This document shows, piece by piece, positions 165 through 16,722 of a DNA stretch of 64,000 nucleotides; the first letter of the stretch is position 1, and every line of letters starts with the position of its first letter. A program made the translations under genes and the position numbers. Source of the DNA: a bacterium (GTDB lineage Bacteria > UBA8248 > JACPRG01 > G963555815). Below the pieces are notes generated by a model. It had not been told where the DNA came from and made no database searches. It worked only from the letters and a program-made list of their open reading frames with translations. The DNA lies in NCBI GenBank assembly GCA_965218795.1, contig OZ244653.1:2624001-2688000 (forward strand). Reading direction: 5' to 3'.

Positions 165-238
165 AATCACTCCCCCCTTGAGGGGGAGTCGGCAAGGCAA
201 GGGCCCGGCCCGCGGATCTTGCCGGTGGGGGGAGACAA
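165..238. repeat. REP-like palindromic element
   Basis: Two hairpins, CTCCCCC/GGGGGAG and CGGCAAG/CTTGCCG. A near-identical copy lies at about 4846-4920. Confidence 0.7.
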
Positions 239-551
239 CTGCGCGCCTTCACGTGGCGAGGTGGCCTTTGCCGGTAATATATATAGATTCATTCTCAAGA
301 GCCGTGAGATCTCGTTATCATATTGATATTATTGGATAAGTCATGTTTTTCCTGCTCTTCTCTGGAACCCGCATTCCATAGTCCGTAATCAAAATGAAAG
401 CGGATTCGTTAAAACACACGCGCATCCAGAGGTGTTCCTGGCGGACCGTTACACCTTCACCCTAAAATAAAAAGTCCCACTCCGCAACAACTCGCTTATG
501 GTTAAGTCCGGTGCCCGGTAACGCCTATCCACGAACCACCGGTCCGGTCCC

Positions 552-651
552 TTACGCGCCGGAATACAGACGCGTACGGCGGATAAGTTTTTGCCATGGG
601 AACACATCGCTGCATAGTCTGAAGGTGTCCACCAAAGCCGGGGCAACTCCG
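552..651 (-). mobile_element. IS3-family left-end remnant
   Basis: Minus strand GGAGTTGCCCCG..GTGGACACCTTCAGACT..ATGGCAAAAACTTATCCGCCGTACGCG matches the left end and orfA start (MAKT.P.YA) of the IS at 31587. Confidence 0.8.
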
Positions 652-692
652 ATATGGGGACACGGATTCGCCTGTCAAAGGAGGCGCGTTGA

Positions 693-1220
693 ATGAAATT
701 CGTTTTGATTTCCGCATGTATATTCGTCCTTGCAACAATTTGTCATAGCGCCGCGGAACAGCCTTTGACCAAAGGTTACGTCAGGCGGCTTTTATCGAAC
801 CCGCCTCGACATCAGGAAAAACTGAGACCGGGGACGCTCCATGGTTGCGTCCACATACCCGCCAGGGGCTTCTTCCAAAGACTCATGGTGGGTTCTGAAA
901 TCACCGGAGAGAGCTGCTCCATCACCGTGAACCAGGACAACACCGCAAACGTCAGTTTCCTGGGAGATGACGCCATATCCCTGGTGAGCACGAGTACGGA
1001 GAGATACCTTACCGATATTTTTATCGGAGAATTGGGGAACGACCAGGTGCTCATCGTCCAGCATCATCGGGGCGAAGTCGTGTCGGTCACTCAGACTGTC
1101 TATGACAAAAACGGCGATGTGGTGTATGGCCGCTCCGGAGTCGGTGAATTCCTCAGGGAATGCAGTTTCGGAATGACGACGTCCGAAAGACTGGCCGGCA
1201 GAAAGAGGTGCAAAAAATAA
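693..1220 (+). CDS. Hypothetical secreted protein
   Basis: 175 aa with an N-terminal signal peptide (MKFVLISACIFVLATICHSA) and an upstream AGGAGG RBS. No family recognised. Confidence 0.7.
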   Translation: MKFVLISACIFVLATICHSAAEQPLTKGYVRRLLSNPPRHQEKLRPGTLHGCVHIPARGFFQRLMVGSEITGESCSITVNQDNTANVSFLGDDAISLVSTSTERYLTDIFIGELGNDQVLIVQHHRGEVVSVTQTVYDKNGDVVYGRSGVGEFLRECSFGMTTSERLAGRKRCKK

Positions 1221-1341
1221 GGGAACCATATACTCGGCCAGCCGTTCGCCGATGAACGGCGCATCGCTCGCGGCGTGTTCCATCAAGGGCTTGTCGGTCT
1301 CGGCCGCGACCTTCGCGCGGCCTGCCCGATGCGCTCGTCCT

Positions 1342-1785
1342 TCATCCCGGCCCGGGCCTCGTGCCCCGCCTCCCGGATGAAGGACGGTTGAAGATAAAAT
1401 CGAAGCTCAACCAAAGGCTCTTGGAATACCGTAAAAAAAACACTGGAAACAGGACGCAAAAGCCAGCCCACAGCAAAAGTTGCCAGTTGAGCGAGATGCT
1501 TGTGTAGACATCGAGAATGAAATACCCGGCCAACGCAATCAGCGTGGTCAACCCGTAATTGATGTATATCGCCCCAACGCAGTACCCCATTTCCGGCTCA
1601 CAAGGGAGCCCGCATTCGGGACACTCCGGAACCATCGAGAACAGGGTGTGGTAGAGCCTTCCCTTCCCGCATCGGGGGCACACGAGCCGCAGACCCCGCT
1701 TCAGAATCGTCATCGCCCGCGACGGGTCCAATCTTCCCATTGCGTCAACATGCTCCTTCGGCTCGGAAAGCCGACCTCCCGCCAT
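1342..1785 (-). CDS. DUF983-family zinc-ribbon membrane protein
   Basis: CPRCGKGRLY...CPECG followed by two hydrophobic helices. The true start may be an internal Met. Confidence 0.8.
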   Translation of the reverse strand: MAGGRLSEPKEHVDAMGRLDPSRAMTILKRGLRLVCPRCGKGRLYHTLFSMVPECPECGLPCEPEMGYCVGAIYINYGLTTLIALAGYFILDVYTSISLNWQLLLWAGFCVLFPVFFLRYSKSLWLSFDFIFNRPSSGRRGTRPGPG

Positions 1786-2009
1786 TCGAAGGAGGAAGCG
1801 CGCCCTGGAGAAGCGGCGCGACGCCGTCTCCCTACCAGCGGAGCGAGCCGCGAAGGGCTACGCCGTGTTCGGGCTCCTCATCGCCCGCGTCCTCCGCCCG
1901 GTCTCGCGGGCGGTCAGGATTCAGCCGCTGCGCGGGCTCAGGCGCATGGTGGAATAGGCCGGAGGCACGGTTGCGCTGTGCGGGTGGAAGGGGAGCCGGG
2001 ATGGTCCCT

Positions 2010-2240
2010 GGTCCGACACGGACCCGCCGGGATACGCGGGAGTTTTAATGAATCCGCTTTCGTTTTGATTACATGCTGTAACAGGCGGGTTCCGAACGGA
2101 ATTGGAGAAAATGTATATTTATAATCATATCAATATGATATGAGGATCTTACGGCTTATGAAAACGGCTCGATGTATCTGGGTTGAAAGGGCCGTGCATC
2201 GACCGTGCTCGATGCCGCCGGCGCCCGAGGCCTTTTCCTC
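2010..2240 (-). repeat. Integrase-tail repeat, copy B (inverted)
   Basis: Reverse complement has CGGCGGCATCGAGCACGGTCGATGCACGGCCC and the core TAATCAAAACGAAAGCGGATTCATTAAAAC (2042-2071; 28/30 to copy A). Confidence 0.85.
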
Positions 2241-2297
2241 CGCGTTCGAGAACTTTGTCGATATCGCGATTGTTGCGGATTCACAAGGAGAAACCCC

Positions 2298-2699
2298 ATG
2301 ACGCACGATGAGGCCCTGGCCTTCCTGAACGAGCAGCGCCATGGCGTTCTGAGCACATTGTTGGAAGACCGCAGGCCGCACCCCACGCCGATCATGTTCG
2401 ATTACCAGGACGGGGTCGTGGAAACCTCCATGACCTGGGATCGCGTGAAAGCCAGAAACCTCAAGCGAGACCCGAGGGCCACGCTTTGCGTGCTGCCGCA
2501 GGACAGGTTCCACCCCTATCTTTGCGTGGAAGGAGATGCGACGCTCGTCGAAGACCCCGATGGTCTGAAAAACCTCGACCTGTACCGGCGCATCACCGGA
2601 AAAGACCCGGATGATCTCGATGAATATCTACAAGCGATGAAAGATGAGAAACGACTCGTGACACGGCTGAGCGTCAAGCGTATGTATCCCCTCACCTGA
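2298..2699 (+). CDS. PPOX-class (pyridoxamine 5'-phosphate oxidase-like, probably F420-dependent) oxidoreductase
   Basis: GVLSTL..D.RPH.TPI and K.RNL.RDPR.TLCV motifs. RBS AAGGAG precedes ATG 2298. Confidence 0.85.
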   Translation: MTHDEALAFLNEQRHGVLSTLLEDRRPHPTPIMFDYQDGVVETSMTWDRVKARNLKRDPRATLCVLPQDRFHPYLCVEGDATLVEDPDGLKNLDLYRRITGKDPDDLDEYLQAMKDEKRLVTRLSVKRMYPLT

Positions 2700-2816
2700 T
2701 CCGGCGAGCCTGAAGGGGGGGACGGACAACAAACCCCGCCGCTCATCCGCGCTCACCCGGCCCTTGTTCCGTGCTATGGTTCGGAGCCAATTCATCGCGC
2801 AGAGGAGGACGTTTCC

Positions 2817-3134
2817 ATGGCTGTCACTGCAATCGTTCGCTTCACGCTTCCAGAGGGCAAGACCCAGGAGGACATGGCCGCGGCTTATGAGAAATCCGCG
2901 CCGCTCTACCGGGACGTTCCCGGCCTGGTGCGCAAATACTATCTGTTGTCCGAGGACGTGCGGACCGGCGGAGGCGTGTATCTCTTCGAATCGCGCGCCG
3001 ATGCCGAGCGGCTGTACGACGAGGCTTGGCGGGCCGGACTGCGCGAGCGTCTGGGAGTCGAAGCGAGTATCGAATACTTCGACTCGCCCGTCATCGTCGA
3101 CAACGAGGTCGGGGCCATTTCCACCGCATCCTAG
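2817..3134 (+). CDS. YdhR-like putative monooxygenase (dimeric alpha-beta barrel)
   Basis: VPGLVRKYYL..D..TGGGVYLFES motif; GAGGAGG RBS. Confidence 0.8.
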   Translation: MAVTAIVRFTLPEGKTQEDMAAAYEKSAPLYRDVPGLVRKYYLLSEDVRTGGGVYLFESRADAERLYDEAWRAGLRERLGVEASIEYFDSPVIVDNEVGAISTAS

Positions 3135-3159
3135 CGTGGTCGCAGAGCCTGCCGATGGT

Positions 3160-4688
3160 GGGGCTGTTGAAAAAGCCGGTTTCGAGACCGGGCGCATGCA
3201 GGATCACGTGGCGGCGGCCGCCCGCAAGTCTGTTCGGGGTGTGTGGGCGTGATGGACATGCAGCGGCTCTTGTCCGGCAACGCGGGCCGTCCAATTGGCC
3301 AATAGGATGGCAACAAGGGCGGCCCCAAGCCGCTTGAGATTGATCGCCGCGGCCGTCATGTAGGCCTGGACCTTCATGTTGTCGAGACCGCGCCGGACCG
3401 CGCGCCCGAGGCCGTGCCAGAGCTTCGCCTCGCCGTGGAAGCCTTCCGAACGCCAGAGGTGGCGTTGGTACAGGCGCCGGTCGTCCTCGCTCCATCGCGC
3501 ATGCCGGCGCCGCGCCCTGAGCAGCGCCGGATAGTCATGCGGAAGCACCACCTCCTTGTTGATGCGCGTCTTCGGCAGACACTCGCTCCGAAGCGGACAG
3601 CGCGCGCAGTCGCCGGCCCTGGAATGGAAAACCGCCCGCGCCCGGTGACCCGCAGGGGACGCAGGAGCTTTCCCCGCGGGCACTTCACGATGTTGTTCCG
3701 GGCGTCGTAGCGGAAGCGACGCAGGGGAACCCGGCTCCTGGGCGGATCTCTCCGTGCCGGGATGAGCGGATCAATGCCGCGGCGCTCCAGCCCGCCATAG
3801 ACCTGGGCGTAGGCATAACCGGCATCGGCCGTCACCGTCGCGATCTCCCGACCCGCGACCTCCCGAACCTCATCCACCTGAGCCTCGATCATCTCGCGCT
3901 CGTTCACCGCTCCCGTCGTCACAGAAACGTCCAGCACCACGCCTCTCACGTCGTCCACCGCCGTGTGCTGCTTGTAGCACGGCTCGAGCCGCCGGTTGCA
4001 CGCCGAGGTCGCCAGGCTCGGTCCGCATCGGTGCGGCTCACCTTCCTGGACTTGCCGCGCCGACCGCCTCTGTTCTTCTCCCCTTCAACCTCCTCCTCCC
4101 CGCGGTTCTCCGTCATCACCTCATCCACATGCCGCTCCACCAGGCTCTCCCAGCTGACATCGGCGCGGACCAGCGAGGCATCGATGTGCACAACCTCGGC
4201 CGTGGCGACCTTCGCCTCCAGGCAGGCCCTCACCGTGCGCTGGAATATCTCCCGGAACCGCCTCTCGCCCCAGCGCTGGCGGATCCGGGTCAGGCTCGAA
4301 TGGTCGGGCACACGCTCGTGCAAGCCATAGCCGATGAACCACCGGATCGCGATGTTCACCTGCGCTTCCCGCATCAGCCTGCGGTCGTGCACGATGCCCA
4401 GCAGCAGGCCGGCGAGCATCAACCGCACCGCCACCTCCGGATCGATACCGGGCCGACCGTTGTCCGGGCAATAGCAGTCCGCCACTTCCTCACGTAGCCA
4501 GCCCAGGTCGAGAACACGGTCCACACGCGCCAGTATGTGATCCTCGGGCACCAGCTGCTCAAGCGAGCCGGTGATGAATAACGCCATCTGATCCCGCCCC
4601 TTCCGTCCCAACATCTCGTGGCCTCCCTGTCTCAAGCACAAAATATCGATACACGGAATCACAGAACCAGGACTTTTTCAACAGACCC
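3160..4688 (-). mobile_element. IS1182-family IS with frameshifted transposase
   Basis: Terminal IRs GGGGCTGTTGAAAAAG / GGGTCTGTTGAAAAAG. The transposase is split over three frames (GRPGIDPEV, HIDAS, TADAGY, EGFHGEAK..HGL). Confidence 0.9.
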
Positions 4689-11551: not shown

Positions 11552-12074
11552 TGTATGCCCTCCTCAAGGTCCACAGGGTCGACCGTGCATTCCCACCAAA
11601 TTTCAATCTTCAGGCAATTCTCAAAGACGGAATCCAAGGCTAGCCGGCGATGAAAAGAACGTTCTTCCCTCTCACCAAGCGCGGCCACCGGGCAGTTTTT
11701 GAGGTACAGGTTTGTGGAAAAATCTATTCAAATCTAAGATTAGACCGAGGCGATGAATTCTGTCAACTGAAGACGTGCGTGATCGATCCGATTGTCATAA
11801 ATGTTCAAGGGTTTGATTCTAGCGGTTGAGTGGTTCAGACTCGTAAATGGGCTTGTCCCTCGGGACCATGGGTCTGCGGCCGACCGGAGGCCAAAGAAAC
11901 CTTGTGCGGACTCAGTTGAGATAGAGAGATTTGACGAATACCCTGGGGTCGAACCCTGTAAACCCATGGCATCTATCGGAGGGAATGAAGGTTCGCCCCA
12001 TTTGTGGATGCCAAGGGGCAGCAGTCAAGCCGGGCCGTCCCTGTTCTTGGCCCGCGGTCTTGGGAGATTGGCGA

Positions 12075-14255
12075 ATGACCGTCGATCCGTTCACCTTTGA
12101 GATCGTCCGTCACAAGTTCATGCGCGTGATCGACGAGGCGGTCATTACGTTGAAGCACATCTCCGGATCCTCGGCCACGACGGAAGGTCATGACCTTCTG
12201 GTTGCTCTCTACCGTGCGGACGGGGGTCTTCTGATGGGCGTCTTTGGCTACCTGCACGCCCTGCCTGGTGCGGGCCAGGCCTGTCGACACGTCATAGCCG
12301 AGTACGCGGAAAATCCCGGTATCTACGAGGGCGACGTGTTCCTGTTGAACGACCCCTACGTCGCGGCGCTTCACAGTTCGGACACATATGTCATCTCTCC
12401 GATCTTCTACCAGGGGATGCTGGTCGCCTGGAGCGCGAATTTTATCCACGTGCGGGATATCGGCGCGATCAACCCTGGCGGGTTCGCTCCCGACTCCAGG
12501 GAGATATTTCATGAGGGCTTCATGTCCCCAGGGATCAAGCTGTTGGAGAGAGGGGTTCGCAGAAAAGATGTCTGGGAGACCATTCTCAACATGGTCAGGA
12601 CGCCGGAGGTGGTCGCTCTGGACCTGCATTCACAAATCGCCGCCAGTATTACCGCCCGAGAACGCATGGAGGAGCTGCTGGATAAATACGGTTGGGAAAT
12701 GGTGGACGCCGTGGCGCAGGGGCTGATCGACCAGTCCGAGTCGCTTCTTCGACAAAGACTCAGGGAACTCCCCGATGGGACATGGAGAACCAGACAGTAT
12801 CTGGAGACAGAAGAAAGGGTTTTCACCGTCAACTTGGCCATGACCAAGACGGCCGACGCCCTCCATTACGACTTTGCAGGCACGAGCGAACAGGCGTCTG
12901 TCGGATTCAACGCCACCTACTGGGGGACCTTCGGAGCCCTCTTCGCCCCTCTCTTCCCCTTGCTGGGTTACGACATGACCTGGAACGAAGGAATCCTCAA
13001 GCCAGTCACGATGGACGCGCCGGAAGGAAGCCTCGTGAACTGCATCCGCCCTGCCCCGAACTGTTTGGCGACCATCTCGGGAATCGAGATCGTGAACAAC
13101 GTGTCTCTCGAGGCGATATCGAAAATGCTGGTTGGCAGCGACATGTATCGCAAGGAGGCGACCGCGGTCTGGCTGGGGGCGCACTCGCCCATTACCGTCA
13201 GCGGCTACAAGGAGAACCGATACGTAATCGAGCAGGTGAGCGATGAGTTCGGGGGGTCGGGAGGGGCTCGGACCTTCAAGGACGGGATCGATTTCGGCGG
13301 GGAGATTCCAAATCCTCTCTCGAGAACCCCGAATATTGAAAGCGAGGAGGCCGGACTTCCCATTCTCTTTCTGTTCAGACGCATGCTGAGCGACTCAGCC
13401 GGTCCAGGCCGCTTTCGGGGCGGGATGACCGGCGAGTACGCTTTCACGGCCCATCGGGCCGAGGGCGGAAAAGTCGATGCGGTGCTCTATGGAAGGGGGA
13501 CCGAGTTCACTCAATGCCAGGGGTTCTCCGGCGGATACCCAGGGTCCAATTGTGGATACGTCATCATCAAAGGAAGCAATGCGAAGCAACGCCTGGAGGC
13601 GGAAGACCTCCCGGAAAGTCTGGAGGAATGGGGGGGCGCCCGGGAGTTCGTTTCATGGGGGACGTACGCACTGAAGGAAGGGGAGGTGCTCCATGCGTGG
13701 ATCATGGGAGGTGGCGGCTACGGCGACCCTCTGGAGCGGGAGCCCGCTCAAGTCAGAGACGACGTCCTTCAAGGGTTGGTCTCCCCCGACTGGGCGCAAG
13801 ATGTCTACGGGGTGGTCCTGACCAAGAACGGGGAGGTAGACCCGGAAGGAACCGAGAGGCTGCGGAAGGAGATGACCCGCCTGAGGCTCACGGGTTGGGG
13901 CAAGGCTTCATGGGTCAGGTCTCCGCAAACGGGATCGATTCCCGTGGTCGAGGGTACGCGGGATGTCAAGGACCACAACATCAGTGAAAACCTGAAGGCC
14001 GTTCAGAGTGAACTTGGGACCTCCATCCATTGTCGAAAATGTGGCCATGGAATATCCCGCATCGGAGACCCTTGGAAGGACTGTACCTTCGTGGTCCGGT
14101 CGTCCTTGGCGCGATCGGGCCCCTTCCGGTCAACATCCGGCCGATTCGAGATGAGACTCTATCTGTGTCCCGGGTGTGGACGTTCCCTGGATGTGGAAGT
14201 TTCCCTTCCGGAGGACGCGCCCCTCTACGATGTAGTGGTACCGACCTTTGAGTGA
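12075..14255 (+). CDS. Hydantoinase B/oxoprolinase-family protein with C-terminal acetone-carboxylase-gamma-like Zn domain
   Basis: DPFTFEI, GDVFLLNDPY, D..GPGRFRGG and GGGGYGDP motifs. The tail has CRKCGH...CPGCG..LDVE. Confidence 0.88.
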   Translation: MTVDPFTFEIVRHKFMRVIDEAVITLKHISGSSATTEGHDLLVALYRADGGLLMGVFGYLHALPGAGQACRHVIAEYAENPGIYEGDVFLLNDPYVAALHSSDTYVISPIFYQGMLVAWSANFIHVRDIGAINPGGFAPDSREIFHEGFMSPGIKLLERGVRRKDVWETILNMVRTPEVVALDLHSQIAASITARERMEELLDKYGWEMVDAVAQGLIDQSESLLRQRLRELPDGTWRTRQYLETEERVFTVNLAMTKTADALHYDFAGTSEQASVGFNATYWGTFGALFAPLFPLLGYDMTWNEGILKPVTMDAPEGSLVNCIRPAPNCLATISGIEIVNNVSLEAISKMLVGSDMYRKEATAVWLGAHSPITVSGYKENRYVIEQVSDEFGGSGGARTFKDGIDFGGEIPNPLSRTPNIESEEAGLPILFLFRRMLSDSAGPGRFRGGMTGEYAFTAHRAEGGKVDAVLYGRGTEFTQCQGFSGGYPGSNCGYVIIKGSNAKQRLEAEDLPESLEEWGGAREFVSWGTYALKEGEVLHAWIMGGGGYGDPLEREPAQVRDDVLQGLVSPDWAQDVYGVVLTKNGEVDPEGTERLRKEMTRLRLTGWGKASWVRSPQTGSIPVVEGTRDVKDHNISENLKAVQSELGTSIHCRKCGHGISRIGDPWKDCTFVVRSSLARSGPFRSTSGRFEMRLYLCPGCGRSLDVEVSLPEDAPLYDVVVPTFE

Positions 14256-14585: not shown

Positions 14586-14800
14586 CGGCCCTGACCGGTT
14601 GCCAGCGGGGCGCGAGGCGCTCCATCTTCGCCGGCGGACGGTTTGCACGGACGCGAAGCTCGGCAGGCTGCGGCTTCACGATCGCGCCACACCCTGGCCA
14701 GTCACGCGGTCATGTCCGGCGAGAACCTGCTGCCCATCGGCAGGTTGCATGGCCACCGGCGGCATCGAGCAAGGTCGATGCACGGCCCTTGCAACCCCCT
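14586..14800 (+). pseudogene. Tyrosine integrase remnant (box I fused to box II by deletion)
   Basis: ALTGCQRG/EALHLR then AKLGRLRLHD / SHAVMSGENLLPIGRLHGHRRHR, read across frameshifts. Confidence 0.8.
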
Positions 14801-14969
14801 TATGTGAGTAAGGACGATCTTTCCAGCCGTGAAATCCTACTATCCTATTGATATTATTGGATAATATACAATCTTCCTGCTCTCGCTCAGAACTCGACTT
14901 CTATATTCCGTAATCAAAATGAAAGCGGATTCGTTAAAACTCCTGCGCATCCCGGCGCGTTCCTGTCGG

Positions 14970-15926
14970 GCCGAGTAGGCGGGGGCATTGCTGCGCCCCG
15001 CCCCTCACAGAGCCGAGCGTGCGCGATTGACGCACTCGGTTCCTCACCTGACAGGTTCGCTCAAGAAGGTTGTCCTTGATCCGCAGGTCGAGGAGTGTCC
15101 GGAGGTGGGAACCGTTCCGGATGTCTCCTCGCCTGTTCGGCTATCCACTGCTGTTTCGTGTACGTGTTGGTGGAACTCAGCGTTTCCTCCAGCGTTTCCC
15201 ATCAGTGGGTCTGTACAGGTGACGCCCCGCTTTCCTCCAGCGGGTCCCGATGGCCTCGGTTCCCCGCCTTCAGCGGTACTATCAGGGCGCTACGACTTCC
15301 TGCCCTTGCTTGTCCTTCGGCTTATTGTTTTCGCCAGCCGGCTCCGCGGGCGCCTGCCGGGGTTCGTGTCCGCCCTGGGGCGCTCCCGCCGCCGTGCAGG
15401 CCCGACGACGGGCCGGGGTCTTTGTTGTTCACGCTGGCCGTCCCCTTTCCAGCGTTCTTGCCCACGGGCAAGGGCAGGATCTCCCAGGTTCCCTGGCGAT
15501 CCATCCCGTGACTTTGCGCCGGTCCACGACCCCGGACGACCCGTCGCGCCTCGCCGTTAGCGGCGCTTCCGGTGCTGCCCCCGGCCGATTAACACCGAAG
15601 GCGTCGTCATTCAGACCGATTTCGAGGCTGCGCGACGCTTCATCACCTGCTGTCTACGCTTCACGACGGGCGTTGCCGCACGCCATGCAAGACTCGCTTC
15701 CGGCTGGCGGGTGCGCCTTTGCCGGGCGGGAGTCGAACCCGCTGGGTCGCTTCGAGAGGTTTCAGGTCATCTCATCCTCCTCTCCAGGGCTTCGCCTGGC
15801 GCAATAACCATTCAGTCGTGGGGTGAGATGGTCGCTGGGGCCGGAGGCAGTTGTTGATATTCCGCGGCGTAGTCGGTTTGGGCCGGTACTTTCCTGACCG
15901 CCATCAGCGCGTGACTGAATGCTTAC
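14970..15926. mobile_element. IS66-like MITE (~123 bp) carrying a group II intron in its left IR
   Basis: G|TAACCATTCAGTC ... GACTGAATGCTTAC inverted ends, flanked by the 8-bp direct repeat CCTGTCGG (14962-14969 and 15927-15934). Confidence 0.8.
14971..15804 (-). ncRNA. Group II intron ribozyme with RT ORF deleted
   Basis: 5' TTGCG; domain V GAACCGAGTGCG..CGCACGCTCGGCTC; domain VI ending CCTACTCGG(C). Only a short IEP N-terminal relic (TKQQWIAEQARRHPER) remains. Confidence 0.88.
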
Positions 15927-16069
15927 CCTGTCGGACCGTTGCACCTCCGTCCTGCAAAGTCTGACCGCGCAACAACTCGCTCACGGTTATGCTCCGGCGC
16001 CCCGCAACGTTCTTTCAGGAACCACCCGCCCACGCCCCATGACGGCGCCCGATTGGCACCCGCAGCTTA

Positions 16070-16722
16070 GTCTGGAGTGAGCTTCATCGTCACGAACCTG
16101 ACCGTTTGCCCTGAGGACGTGGTCCACTTCTACAATCAGCGAGGCACGGCGGAGCAGTGGATCAAGGAGGGCAAGCACGCGTTGAACTGGACGCGGCTGT
16201 CCTGTCACGGCTTTGAAGAAAACCAGGTTCGCTTGCAACTGTTTGCCTTGGCGTACAACCTGGCCAACTTCCTGCGGCGGCTGGCATTGCCGAGAGCGGT
16301 GAAGCACTGGTCGCTGACGACACTTCGGGAGAAGCTGATCAAGATTGGGGCCAAGGTGGTTGCCCACGCCCGGTACACCACCTTCCAGTTGGCTGAGGTG
16401 GCGGTGTCGCGGCAACTGTTCAGGGCAATTCTTGAGCGAATCCGACGGTTGTGGTTGCCGCCTCCGGTTCCGGACACCGGATAACGGAGCCGCTAGCCAG
16501 GAAGCTAAGTGACGTGGTGGAGACGGGGGATCAGTCTGTGCTGACCCGTAGTCGGGGCGCGTTAAGGGCAAGAATTCCAAGGAGTTTTGACCCGTGATGA
16601 CCCTCAGGCATACAAACGAACTGAAGCTCCCCGAAAAAGTCTTGACATTGTGCTCAAAGTCTGACCCGATAGAAATACGTCTTGTCAGAAGTATGATTTG
16701 GCAGGTCATCTGGGAAATCCCG
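16070..16722 (+). mobile_element. IS1380-family 3' remnant
   Basis: FIVTNL...FYNQRGTAEQWIKEGK...TLREKLIKIGAKV; IS1380-like end GGGAAATCCCG near 16712-16722. Confidence 0.85.

Follow-up and report, generated by a model that had tools for sequence, protein, structure and literature searches.

How an ORF-less group II intron came to lie within the last bases of a transposable element that itself interrupts a multi-copy repeat is the question raised by a locus at 14962..15934 of a 64,000-nucleotide stretch of bacterial DNA (the window; GenBank assembly GCA_965218795.1, contig OZ244653.1, positions 2,624,001 to 2,688,000). The initial annotation, made from the sequence letters alone, had read this locus as three levels of nesting: the intron in the terminal GTAA of an IS66-like MITE, and the MITE within an integrase-tail repeat. 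We find that the three levels are borne out, with the intron inside the MITE and the MITE inside the repeat.

Anatomy of the nested locus

The sequence CCTGTCGG is found at 14962-14969 and is repeated at 15927-15934. Deletion of 14971-15804 leaves G plus TAACCATTCAGTC...GACTGAATGCTTAC, which restores the element described before as about 123 bp long; its length is exactly 123 bp and it has terminal inverted repeats (IRs) of 14 bp with one mismatch. The features of the locus are the following, with a caret here and below marking an insertion point.

14626..14800, + strand: remnant like the 3′ coding end of phage-type integrase paralogs (78-82% nucleotide identity), upstream of repeat B
14825..14969, + strand: host repeat B, left half, stopping at the insertion hot spot ...CCCTGTCG^G
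14962..14969: left target duplication, CCTGTCGG (8 bp), if the intron end is 14971
14962-14968: alternative left target duplication, CCTGTCG (7 bp), for an intron end at 14970, which leaves the G at 14969 as the MITE tip
14970..15804, - strand: ORF-less group II intron of 835 nt, or 834 with the last C assigned to the MITE; 5′ UUGCG, 3′ GGC
14970..15008, - strand: domain 6, by Rfam alignment; candidate bulged branch-site A at 14976, six nt before the intron end
15009..15043, - strand: domain 5, by Rfam alignment; AAC at the triad position instead of AGC or CGC
15112..15192, - strand: remnant of the intron-encoded reverse transcriptase/maturase (first 27 codons, by match to the L005 protein), marking the domain 4 deletion
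15520..15735, - strand: domain 1 core, Rfam RF02005 (group-II-D1D4-6)
15586..15591, - strand: best EBS1 candidate, 5′-UAAUCG-3′, in terminal loop UGUUAAUCGG; pairs with the 5′ exon end UGGUUA
15805..15926: rest of the MITE (122 of 123 bp), TAACCATTCAGTC...GACTGAATGCTTAC
15927..15934: right target duplication, CCTGTCGG
15927..16060, + strand: host repeat B, right half, 90% identical to G000:C1:2603788-2603933
16077..16484, + strand: C-terminal fragment of an unrelated DDE transposase adjoining the repeat (PF13701 DDE_Tnp_1_4, 144 bits, profile 307-433 of 435)

The outermost level, repeat B, has about 19 true copies in the source genome (G000). Uninterrupted copies exist (for example G000:C1:2603623-2604109), and the segment at G000:C1:2603788-2603933 that matches the right half is contiguous there with the left half. 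The name integrase-tail repeat is justified in part. The stretch at 14626-14800 resembles integrase 3′ ends, matching those at G000:C1:1887262-1887397 and 1907072-1906937, both within tblastn matches of the integrase at L052, and an intact 390-aa integrase stands directly ahead of one repeat B copy; that was found for this 1 of the about 19 copies only, and the L052 integrase gave no tblastn match in the window. An uninterrupted copy of repeat B had no Rfam match at E values up to 1. Considered as a structured RNA, the repeat gave a weak six-copy consensus fold (-25 and -41 kcal/mol for the two strands), and we make no claim of structure.

The second level is the MITE, whose terminal IRs, GTAACCATTCAGTC and GTAAGCATTCAGTC, agree at 13 of 14 positions and start 5′-GTAA. 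Ends of GTAA and 8-bp target duplications are hallmarks of IS66. The 123-bp MITE is not a chance pattern, because two further copies of 123 bp, both intron-free and with perfect 8-bp duplications, are present in the same genome, one 96% identical over 122 bp (G000:C1:1973682-1973804) and the other 85% identical (G000:C1:166701-166823). Together with the GTAA termini and an IR related to that of a full-length IS66-family element, the duplications of these copies uphold the IS66-like assignment, and the MITE appears to belong to the IS66 family as an ISBst12-type element. The duplication around the window MITE is 8 or 7 bp, set by the intron end chosen. We also observe that MITE insertion at one hot spot is repeated, in both orientations, and that other genomes show the same distance of 122 nt between the intron and the IR upstream of it. 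Outside an IR of about 26 bp, in which 18 of 26 positions are common by eye, the interior of the MITE is unlike the full-length IS.

A parent IS66 element with these IRs was found in relatives (L035 and further cases) and not in the source genome. The full-length IS at L035 is 3.3 kb long, with IRs that match perfectly at 26 of 26 positions and start GTAACC, and it encodes a 770-aa transposase (PF03050 DDE_Tnp_IS66, 181.9 bits; NF033517, 270 bits) and a second ORF with a DruA match. The same intron occupies the corresponding tip position, at GGTTA^C of its transposase-proximal end, with a second intron copy at the tip of a neighbouring element. Target duplications bracket the IS plus intron as a whole at L035 and at L039. 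An IS66 element with 13 copies in G036 was tried as a control for empty sites; its ends are unlike this IR pattern and it was uninformative.

The intron, its relatives and its target

The innermost level is a group II intron by an Rfam search of the kind proposed in the initial annotation: RF02005 matches the minus strand of the insert at 15520-15735 over the full model (1-225) with 114.8 bits (gathering score, 49). RF00029, the model for D5/D6, is matched over its whole length (1-77) at 14970-15044 with 35.2 bits, below its gathering score of 40; relatives score 35.7 and 38.1 bits, including copies in genomes with an intact reverse-transcriptase intron. No ORF of more than 60 aa was found on the intron strand. 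Where an intron-encoded reverse transcriptase/maturase would be expected in domain 4, the window copy has only the 27-codon remnant at 15112-15192, which is 93% identical to residues 1-27 of the 446-aa L005 protein and is the sole match to it in the genome.

Folded to a consensus, seven ORF-less copies share 237 pairs, of which 41 show compensatory changes and 235 are retained in the window copy. The D5/D6 helices are preserved with compensatory changes, one D6 pair (alignment columns 826/857) being kept in the window copy by a double change of G to A and C to U. As modelled, the intron RNA fold is still intact in the window copy. Every copy starts UUGCG and ends GC (or G on the other reading) instead of following the boundary consensus 5′-GUGYG...AY-3′, and the domain 5 triad, AGC or CGC by consensus, is AAC in the window and in all aligned family members; its partner base, G in most relatives, is C in the window copy. 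The 1-nt ambiguity of the 3′ splice site pointed out earlier (GG or GGC) is real, and GGC is the more likely end. The presence of several near-identical copies at different sites of one genome (G033) argues that the AAC-triad family is nevertheless active. Public RNA-library contigs (X18 and X20) match the intron at 90-99%, end at the intron ends and run on into other sequence, and thus derive from other copies; no joint across the intron was found in public RNA-library contigs, which is not evidence on splicing either way.

Full-length ORF-less relatives of the intron are 86-89% identical in G033 and G036 and 72% identical in G037 and G020. The autonomous form, about 2.03 kb long, codes for a reverse transcriptase/maturase of 446 aa that has no endonuclease domain: the ORF at L005 scores 355.2 bits with TIGR04416 (cut-off 300), and Pfam finds RVT_1 only and no HNH. 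The PDB matches of the intron protein, LtrA at 3e-47 and GsI-IIC at 3.8e-44, do not discriminate intron class. Judged by sequence, the lineage consists of an autonomous form and several ORF-less forms that were apparently deleted independently.

Examination of the flanks of homologous introns supports the earlier proposal that the intron targets the tips of IS66 IRs. Among relatives of the source genome, the IR forms the 5′ exon at about 20 of 23 distinct junctions, as recognised by eye. A wide scan of genome contigs places it there at 24 of 43 evaluable junctions, with an IR called at a match of at least 15 of 23 positions (the 99.9th percentile of the background is 13), and IR-tip targeting is therefore supported. 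Of the two outcomes named earlier as refuting the reading, neither was observed, since homologous introns associate with IS66-type IR tips and the MITE has intron-free copies. The IR-bearing junctions include records titled Alphaproteobacteria, Rhodospirillaceae, Gammaproteobacteria, Nitrospinota and Nitrospinaceae. The other 19 of the 43 junctions have no IR, and some plainly belong to different target types, with the ends ...GTCTGA or ...GGACC. In 6 loci the intron junction has a homologous IS66 transposase next to it, and the lineage is found at both kinds of IS end, at both MITE ends, in MITEs whose interiors are unrelated and in IS copies belonging to different subtypes; at L090, tandem introns share one IR tip. 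These placements support a lineage that homes to transposon tips and appears to occupy the same spot in several bacterial phyla.

From group II intron biology, the target would be chosen by pairing of EBS1 (UAAUCG) with the IR over its final six or seven bases. The initial annotation had put EBS1 elsewhere, in a TAAC loop at 15556-15559, and this we reject: the 4-bp match is peculiar to the window copy, and at 16 other junctions the loop reads TATC, CAAT, CATC, TACG or TATT without tracking the exon. Our candidate loop pairs at 6 of 7 positions in the window and at 4 to 7 of 7 across 17 junctions, five of which are perfect; position -4 is mismatched in 6 of the 17. Covariation of loop and exon is modest: for positions 4-7, 485 of 10,000 shuffles gave at least as many paired positions as observed, and for position 4 by itself 672 of 10,000 did. 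The junctions are drawn from related genomes and are not independent. Insertion sites outside IS elements end CGATTA, the exact complement of UAAUCG, and three empty IR tips in the source genome end CGATTA^C. For EBS2, the loop at 15556-15559 was compared in every register with exon positions -1 to -19, and nothing rose above shuffles; a blind comparison of intron columns with the exon was dominated by invariant G columns and yielded no usable signal.

Origin of the nesting

It is very probable, in our judgement, that a non-autonomous group II intron retrohomed into the outer IR tip of a 123-bp ISBst12-type MITE that itself lay at a hot spot of the repeat. The MITE would first have inserted at the hot spot of the multi-copy repeat and the intron then into the MITE tip, with the reverse-transcriptase/maturase gene lost from domain 4 of the window intron. 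The intron splits G^TAAC, one base inside the tip, and would read outward from the element, with the IR, ...CACGACTGAATGGTTA, as its 5′ exon and a 3′ exon that starts with the last IR base (C) and continues into arbitrary flank. Splicing would be expected to join the exons as ...GAATGGTTA^C.... Recognition of the conserved inner IR by the intron protein probably contributes as well. Such a site is present at both ends of each IS or MITE copy and would provide many neutral, horizontally travelling landing places, while ORF-less forms would be moved in trans.

A further idea, which we regard as unlikely, is that the intron exploits the IS66 transposase, with homing coupled to transposase activity and the intron capping an active end. 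The intron protein has no endonuclease and the insertion would always fall one base inside the IS tip, where the IS66 transposase would nick DNA during transposition. An opposite-strand nick at the boundary of tip and flank could leave a 3′-OH beside the 3′ end of the reverse-spliced intron and prime reverse transcription.

In the source genome a search for a group II reverse transcriptase gave 0 matches to TIGR04416, and IS66 transposases were found as C-terminal fragments only, none intact; the assembly consists of a single contig, 98.9% complete as judged by marker genes, and plasmids carrying a reverse transcriptase may be missing. Because neither gene was found, the intron and the MITE appear to be stranded relics there, and the earlier suggestion that the intron would immobilise the element is moot in this genome. 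By eye, the source genome has at least 12 recognisable IR tips, and those occupied are the window tip and one with a truncated intron copy at C1:1997738-1997909. In this second locus, 172 nt are 100% identical to the window intron and the junction is the same, while the repeat copy is only 83% identical. With an identical intron end in so diverged a repeat copy, independent homing is no simple explanation; gene conversion or movement of the composite may account for it. We discarded the idea that another IS cut this copy off, as the DNA past the break is unique in the genome.

The second locus would also suit a history in which the intron is cargo at an IS or MITE end, moved with it as one unit by the IS66 transposase. 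The true terminus would then be the base after the intron, and the association with IR tips would come from transposition and not from homing. The duplications that bracket IS plus intron at L035 and L039 agree with this, and fit either order of events. We hold such a history to be very unlikely, as the lineage occupies either kind of IS end, MITEs that differ in their interiors and different IS subtypes, and also IR-free sites whose last six bases complement the intron loop. The same MITE moreover exists intron-free, the introns at L090 are in tandem at one tip, and the outer end of a composite would be without an IR.

Even less probable is that the 123-bp unit is a conserved exon cassette or another element part that merely ends GTAA...TTAC. 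The MITE interior differs from the full-length IS beyond the roughly 26-bp IR, of which 18 of 26 positions are shared by eye, and the source genome has yielded no intact IS66 transposase. Against this reading, the two further copies are exactly 123 bp with perfect 8-bp duplications, insertions occur in both orientations, the 122-nt spacing from IR to intron recurs in other genomes, and IRs of the same type bound the 3.3-kb element with its IS66-family transposase; a published member of the ISBst12 group is described with terminal repeats that start GTAACTGCTCAGCA and an 8-bp duplication (PMC12898284). Least probable of all is an assembly artefact in which collapsed repeats produced the nesting: no public contig spans the intron-MITE or MITE-repeat junction and the region is covered only piecewise, but an IR tip with an intron recurs in many independent assemblies, difference-free pieces cover 15526-15642 and 15809-16172 (run X1) and 15038-15142 (run X2), and the duplication, the MITE length of 123 bp and the intron ends agree to the nucleotide. 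Contigs from X1 and X2 that join 14969 or 14968 to 15805 were considered as an intron-free allele and rejected; their short side is 22 letters and fits paralogous intron-free MITEs.

Related introns and significance

Group II introns that home to IRs are already known. RmInt2 of Sinorhizobium meliloti GR4 is described as a bacterial class D intron that homes into the IRs of ISRm17; as in the lineage studied here, its natural target is an IS inverted repeat, giving two opposite-strand sites per IS copy, and its protein has no endonuclease domain (PMC4615759; PMC5894124). The lineage's 446-aa protein resembles class D in having neither DNA-binding nor endonuclease domains (RVT_1 only in Pfam). 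In contrast, the class D C-terminal motif as given in PMC4615759, LX3AX3PXLF[V/A]HW, is absent from it; on inspection the L005 protein ends ...NALLMRYPLPYVSYARSRQSFLSEPVR without LF[V/A]HW. The MITE hosts and the frequent ORF-less forms are further differences from RmInt2, and the site one base from the IR tip may be another.

Introns have also been found in IS66 transposase genes. One on Bradyrhizobium plasmids (ltrA, for example NZ_CP066352.1) encodes a protein 71% identical to that of the lineage; its RNA is 73% identical over 1.86 kb, starts TTGCG and has AAC at the domain 5 triad, and its host is likewise of the IS66 family. It differs in splitting the transposase ORF, on the opposite strand and not at an IR tip, with an unrelated 5′ exon. 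Sr.md.I1 of S. medicae is likewise described as lying inside an IS66 transposase gene (PMC4615759). UHB.I2, a IIB1 intron of class CL1 from a soda-lake metagenome, is similar by its description in its non-consensus boundaries (5′-UUGCG...GU-3′) and a protein without an endonuclease domain; its neighbour is an integron attC site, and that account reports no conserved exons (PMC7923331).

For the orphan state of the window intron the parallel is C.te.I1 of Clostridium tetani, an ORF-less intron in a genome without intron protein that a 2015 review names as the sole known exception (PMC4424553); in both, no reverse transcriptase/maturase gene was found in the genome. C.te.I1 self-splices and has a shifted 5′ splice site according to that review, whereas the window intron has close autonomous relatives in other genomes, known from sequence. 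On the transposon side, the ISDge4/ISBst12 group is described with a single transposase ORF, terminal repeats from GTAAC or GTGAC...TCAGC and an 8-bp duplication (PMC12898284); compared with ISDge4 as described there, the parent IS has a transposase of 770 aa instead of 449 aa and a second ORF with the DruA match. Our literature searches found no account of an intron with an AAC triad, or of one sited in a MITE or at an IS66 IR tip, though an earlier account may exist.

The locus has consequences for annotation, as IS and MITE ends split by such introns would escape tools that look for paired IRs. The intron family departs from the group II consensus in three ways (5′ U and not G, 3′ GC and not AY, and an AAC triad), yet appears active, and so may serve as a natural variant for ribozyme work. 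The window copy itself is a rare orphan, apparently intact in structure and ORF-less in a genome that yielded no intron protein, a state that the 2015 review gives as very rare in bacteria. The lineage offers a test case for how introns that lack an endonuclease obtain a primer, and for whether introns can restrain insertion sequences at the DNA level, where splicing cannot mend a transposon end; if homing were indeed coupled to the transposase, the intron would be a built-in brake on this IS66 group. With an IR-tip address that appears conserved across records titled Nitrospinota, Alphaproteobacteria and Gammaproteobacteria, these introns would be parasites on parasites, a retroelement lineage addressed to the last bases of a DNA transposon's inverted repeat.

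Anatomy of the nested insertion

The insert is bracketed by an 8-bp duplication, as the initial annotation had read it, with CCTGTCGG present at both 14962-14969 and 15927-15934. On the plus strand, positions 14960-14979 are ...TTCCTGTCGG G CCGAGTAGG... and positions 15913-15938 are ...GACTGAATGCTTAC CCTGTCGG ACCG...; between the duplications the order on the minus strand is GTAAGCATTCAGTC...CACGACTGAATGGTTA, then TTGCGCCAGG...CCTACTCGGC, then C (or CC), then GACAGG. The intron strand has no ORF >60 aa, and the group II assignment was upheld by Rfam.

Features of the intron and intron-free copies of the MITE
15520-15735, minus strand: group-II-D1D4-6 (RF02005), Rfam, 114.8 bits (gathering score 49)
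14970-15044, minus strand: D5/D6 model RF00029, 35.2 bits, below the gathering score of 40
C1:1973682-1973804: intron-free MITE copy, 96% identical, duplication CCCTGGCG
C1:166701-166823: intron-free MITE copy, 85% identical, duplication CCCTGTCG

Using BLAST of the parts of the element against the window's own genome (G000, one 5.17-Mb contig, C1), we found the 122-bp remainder of the MITE two more times. Both copies are exactly 123 bp long with no intron and perfect 8-bp duplications, and both lie inside other copies of the host repeat, oriented opposite to the window's MITE and ≤1 base from where it sits. The proposed MITE is thus a real element, and the nested intron is confirmed.

No intact IS66 transposase was found in G000: PF03050 gave one fragment, and a 770-aa relative gave three, covering residues 572-770. 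That relative is encoded at L035, a locus of the related genome G033, by a 3.3-kb element bounded by 26/26 perfect IRs, GTAACCGTTCGGCGACAGGGTGATGG (DDE_Tnp_IS66, 181.9 bits; NF033517, 270 bits). A 275-aa passenger ORF matching the Druantia protein DruA (PF14236, 129.7 bits) lies between the transposase gene and the far IR (L035:1989-2816, minus strand). With one transposase ORF, termini of GTAAC and duplications of 8 bp, the element fits the ISBst12 group of the IS66 family as set out for ISDge4 in PMC12898284. The MITE and the full-length IS have only the IR in common, with 18 of 26 IR positions agreeing by eye.

Association of the intron with IS66 inverted-repeat tips

Intron matches were found in 15 of the 61 genomes searched, the window's own included; a single genus of a sister family, represented by 23 genomes, accounts for 12 of them. 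The intron exists in two forms, an ORF-less form of 789 to 835 nt and a ~2.03-kb form with a 446-aa ORF (TIGR04416, 355.2 bits). Pfam finds only RVT_1 in this ORF, indicating that it has no endonuclease domain. The end points of the domain 4 deletion vary, with at least four variants among seven ORF-less sequences.

Every intron at 23 distinct 5′ junctions in relatives of G000 starts TTGCG, and at ~20 of these junctions (by eye) the 5′ exon is ...ATCACCC(CACGAC or TGTCGC)CGAAYGNTTA, which is the IR read outward. Three kinds of interior lie behind the IR: the MITE, which may present either of its ends, and the full-length IS, which may do likewise. At L035, one intron occupies the transposase-proximal IS tip and a second, ORF-containing intron occupies the tip of a neighbouring element, with 8 bases between the two elements. 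A wider scan of one genome per species, using the first 22 bases of the intron as query, yielded 44 junctions in 43 loci, of which 43 junctions were evaluable. Of these, 24 score ≥15 of 23 against the IR, where the 99.9th percentile of the background is 13; their record titles include Alphaproteobacteria (5), Rhodospirillaceae, Gammaproteobacteria, Nitrospinota and Nitrospinaceae. Six loci have a homologous IS66 transposase (54 to 100% identical) next to the junction. The other 19 junctions have other exons, including clearly different targets (...GTCTGA, ...GGACC) and non-IS sites ending CGATTA. The association of the intron with IR tips is therefore strong and extends across phyla, supporting the original proposal that the intron targets them.

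Several loci show further arrangements. L090, a record titled Alphaproteobacteria, has one intron directly following another in tandem around position 2534 (...CCTACCCGGC|TTGCG...). Around L025:3444-3480, only CTACCCGGC, the final nine intron bases, stands between an IR tip GGTTAC and the flank, which may be the footprint of an almost wholly deleted intron. An IS66-type end is inserted 3-4 bases before the intron 3′ end near position 3300 of L026 and near position 8221 of L049, both being one place in genome G037, so that IS and intron interrupt each other both ways. In two public sequencing runs (X1, X2), summed contig depth, which is not copy number, was ~170 to 3800 for the intron (window 14948-15843) and ~15 to 45 on unique flanks, indicating that the intron family is far commoner in those communities than the G000 genome.

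Intron boundaries, exon binding and state of the ribozyme

The 1-nt ambiguity of the 3′ splice site noted initially persists. The window's own duplication argues for ...CGG, as it is 8 bp only with this end and otherwise 7 bp. Five other observations argue for ...CGGC (14970), which we favour from these sequence comparisons as the probable end, making the IS tip C the first base of the 3′ exon. The Rfam alignment ends at 14970; an end there leaves the bulged A (14976) six bases away, matching the Rfam consensus; and the tandem introns of L090 abut as ...CGGC|TTGCG. At L039, a locus from another genome, ...CGGC makes TAACCATG a perfect 8-bp duplication that adjoins the element at each end, whereas ...CGG leaves an extra C between tip and duplication. 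The L035 duplication agrees with ...CGGC but is non-discriminating, being 8 bp (AATGCTCC) or, with ...CGG, 9 bp (CAATGCTCC).

The EBS1 first proposed, TAAC in the loop GCUAACGGCGA (15559-15556), did not hold up, as its match to GUUA is peculiar to the window copy; the loop reads TATC, CAAT, CATC, TACG or TATT at 16 other junctions. The neighbouring hairpin loop UGUUAAUCGG (15594-15583) is a better candidate. In the window, six of seven possible pairs, including two G-U, form between its UAAUCG(G) and exon positions -1 to -7; across 17 junctions 4 to 7 of the seven positions are paired, five junctions perfectly. Loop and exon also change together (TAAACGT with ACGTTTA; TAAGCGT with ACGCTTA). 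The observed pairing was reached in 485 of 10,000 shuffles, a modest result given conserved exons and related copies. The non-IS sites end in CGATTA, the exact complement of UAAUCG, which lends independent support to this pairing. Group IIB introns usually have EBS2 as the more 5′ of their exon-binding sites, so the loop is named an EBS1 equivalent by function; no EBS2 pairing with the exon could be demonstrated in the junctions compared.

Relatives also score low on RF00029 (35.7 and 38.1 bits), which makes the window's score a family trait rather than decay of this copy. Of the 237 pairs in a consensus fold of seven ORF-less copies, 41 show compensatory changes; 235 are kept in the window copy and 217 to 234 in the six others. 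One domain 6 pair is altered on both sides in the window copy only. In domain 5 (window 15009-15043, minus strand), the triad position is AAC where AGC (or CGC) is normal, with C or G as the opposite base, in every family copy compared (L003-L051, L065). The family also departs from the consensus at its termini, with a 5′ U (not G) and a 3′ GC (not AY). That G033 has three ORF-less copies with the same score, each at a separate site, suggests that the family is active despite these features.

The window copy retains the first 27 codons of the intron ORF. No group II reverse transcriptase was found in G000, where TIGR04416 had no matches and an intron-protein search returned only this intron-internal remnant, so the intron appears stranded in this one-contig assembly, from which plasmids may be missing. 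According to a 2015 review (PMC4424553), bacterial introns lacking an ORF almost always have a related intron protein encoded in the same genome, and a single exception is known. Searching G000 with RF00029 recovered only the two intron loci. Only the window's tip is occupied among at least 12 IR tips recognised by eye in G000, and three empty tips end CGATTA|C, a perfect match to the candidate EBS1 loop.

The host repeat, mobility and known systems

The host repeat, whose halves lie at 14825-14969 and 15927-16060 in the window, has ~19 true copies in G000, conserved over roughly 270 to 480 bp and containing a promoter-like TTGATATTATTGGATAATA; uninterrupted copies read ...TTCCTATCGGACCGTTGCACC... 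(C1:2603652-2603933). No Rfam family matches it, and it shows no distinct fold. One copy directly follows an intact 390-aa P4-type integrase (PF00589, 85.2 bits, plus an Arm-DNA-bind_3 domain), window 14626-14800, upstream of the repeat, resembles the 3′ ends of integrases, and similar sequence flanks the IS in the sister family. A ~50-nt motif with the hairpin CATCGAgcaaggTCGATG (window 14751-14801) occurs at >30 places in G000. Directly 3′ of the repeat lies a C-terminal fragment of a DDE_Tnp_1_4 transposase (16077-16484, 144 bits). The region is a pile-up of mobile-element remnants, upstream of which is a hydantoinase B / acetone carboxylase-like gene (11931-14255).

Seven of the ~19 copies have an IS66-type IR, or an intron end, inserted at the same spot, ...CCCTGTC(G)|G, marking a hot spot for this IS group. 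IS66-type ends also abut across 7- to 9-bp spacers equal to the target duplication (C1:1926331-1926342, L035:1898-1910, and the 3′ flanks of L039 and L017), which looks like repeated insertion into the duplicated hot-spot target. The second intron locus, C1:1997738-1997909, is the last 172 nt of the intron, 100% identical to the window's, and adjoins another repeat copy (flank 83% identical) at the same junction. The DNA past the break is unique in G000, so the rest of this copy was removed by deletion. An identical intron in diverged repeat copies points to either a recent second insertion or gene conversion.

At this conserved site, with a loop complementary to the exon end, the intron would reverse-splice into the DNA and then be reverse-transcribed, as established group II intron biology predicts; ORF-less copies would be mobilised in trans by the protein of autonomous copies, and the site would be neutral for the host. 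Whether the intron immobilises the element is finely balanced. Immobilisation is plausible because insertion moves the tip base 0.8 to 2 kb away and changes the base after ...GGTTA from C to T, and splicing cannot mend the DNA. Alternatively, the transposase might go on cutting where it did before, so that the intron stays behind.

The closest precedent in the literature consulted is RmInt2, for which both IRs of ISRm17 serve as homing sites (PMC4615759 and PMC5894124); the C-terminal motif that PMC4615759 gives for class D is absent from the present lineage. The nearest named relatives, introns on Bradyrhizobium plasmids with 71% protein identity, split an IS66 transposase gene on the antisense strand, whereas the present lineage sits at the IR tip. 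From these positions, the wider clade seems tied to IS66-family elements at different addresses within them. The UUGCG...GC boundaries have one published parallel, UUGCG...GU (PMC7923331). Literature searches covering main texts turned up no account of an intron placed at an IS66 IR tip, lying within a MITE or having AAC at the triad position. Homing of introns to IS IRs is known behaviour, here well documented in a further form, and the unusual ribozyme features and orphan state in G000 merit specialist attention.
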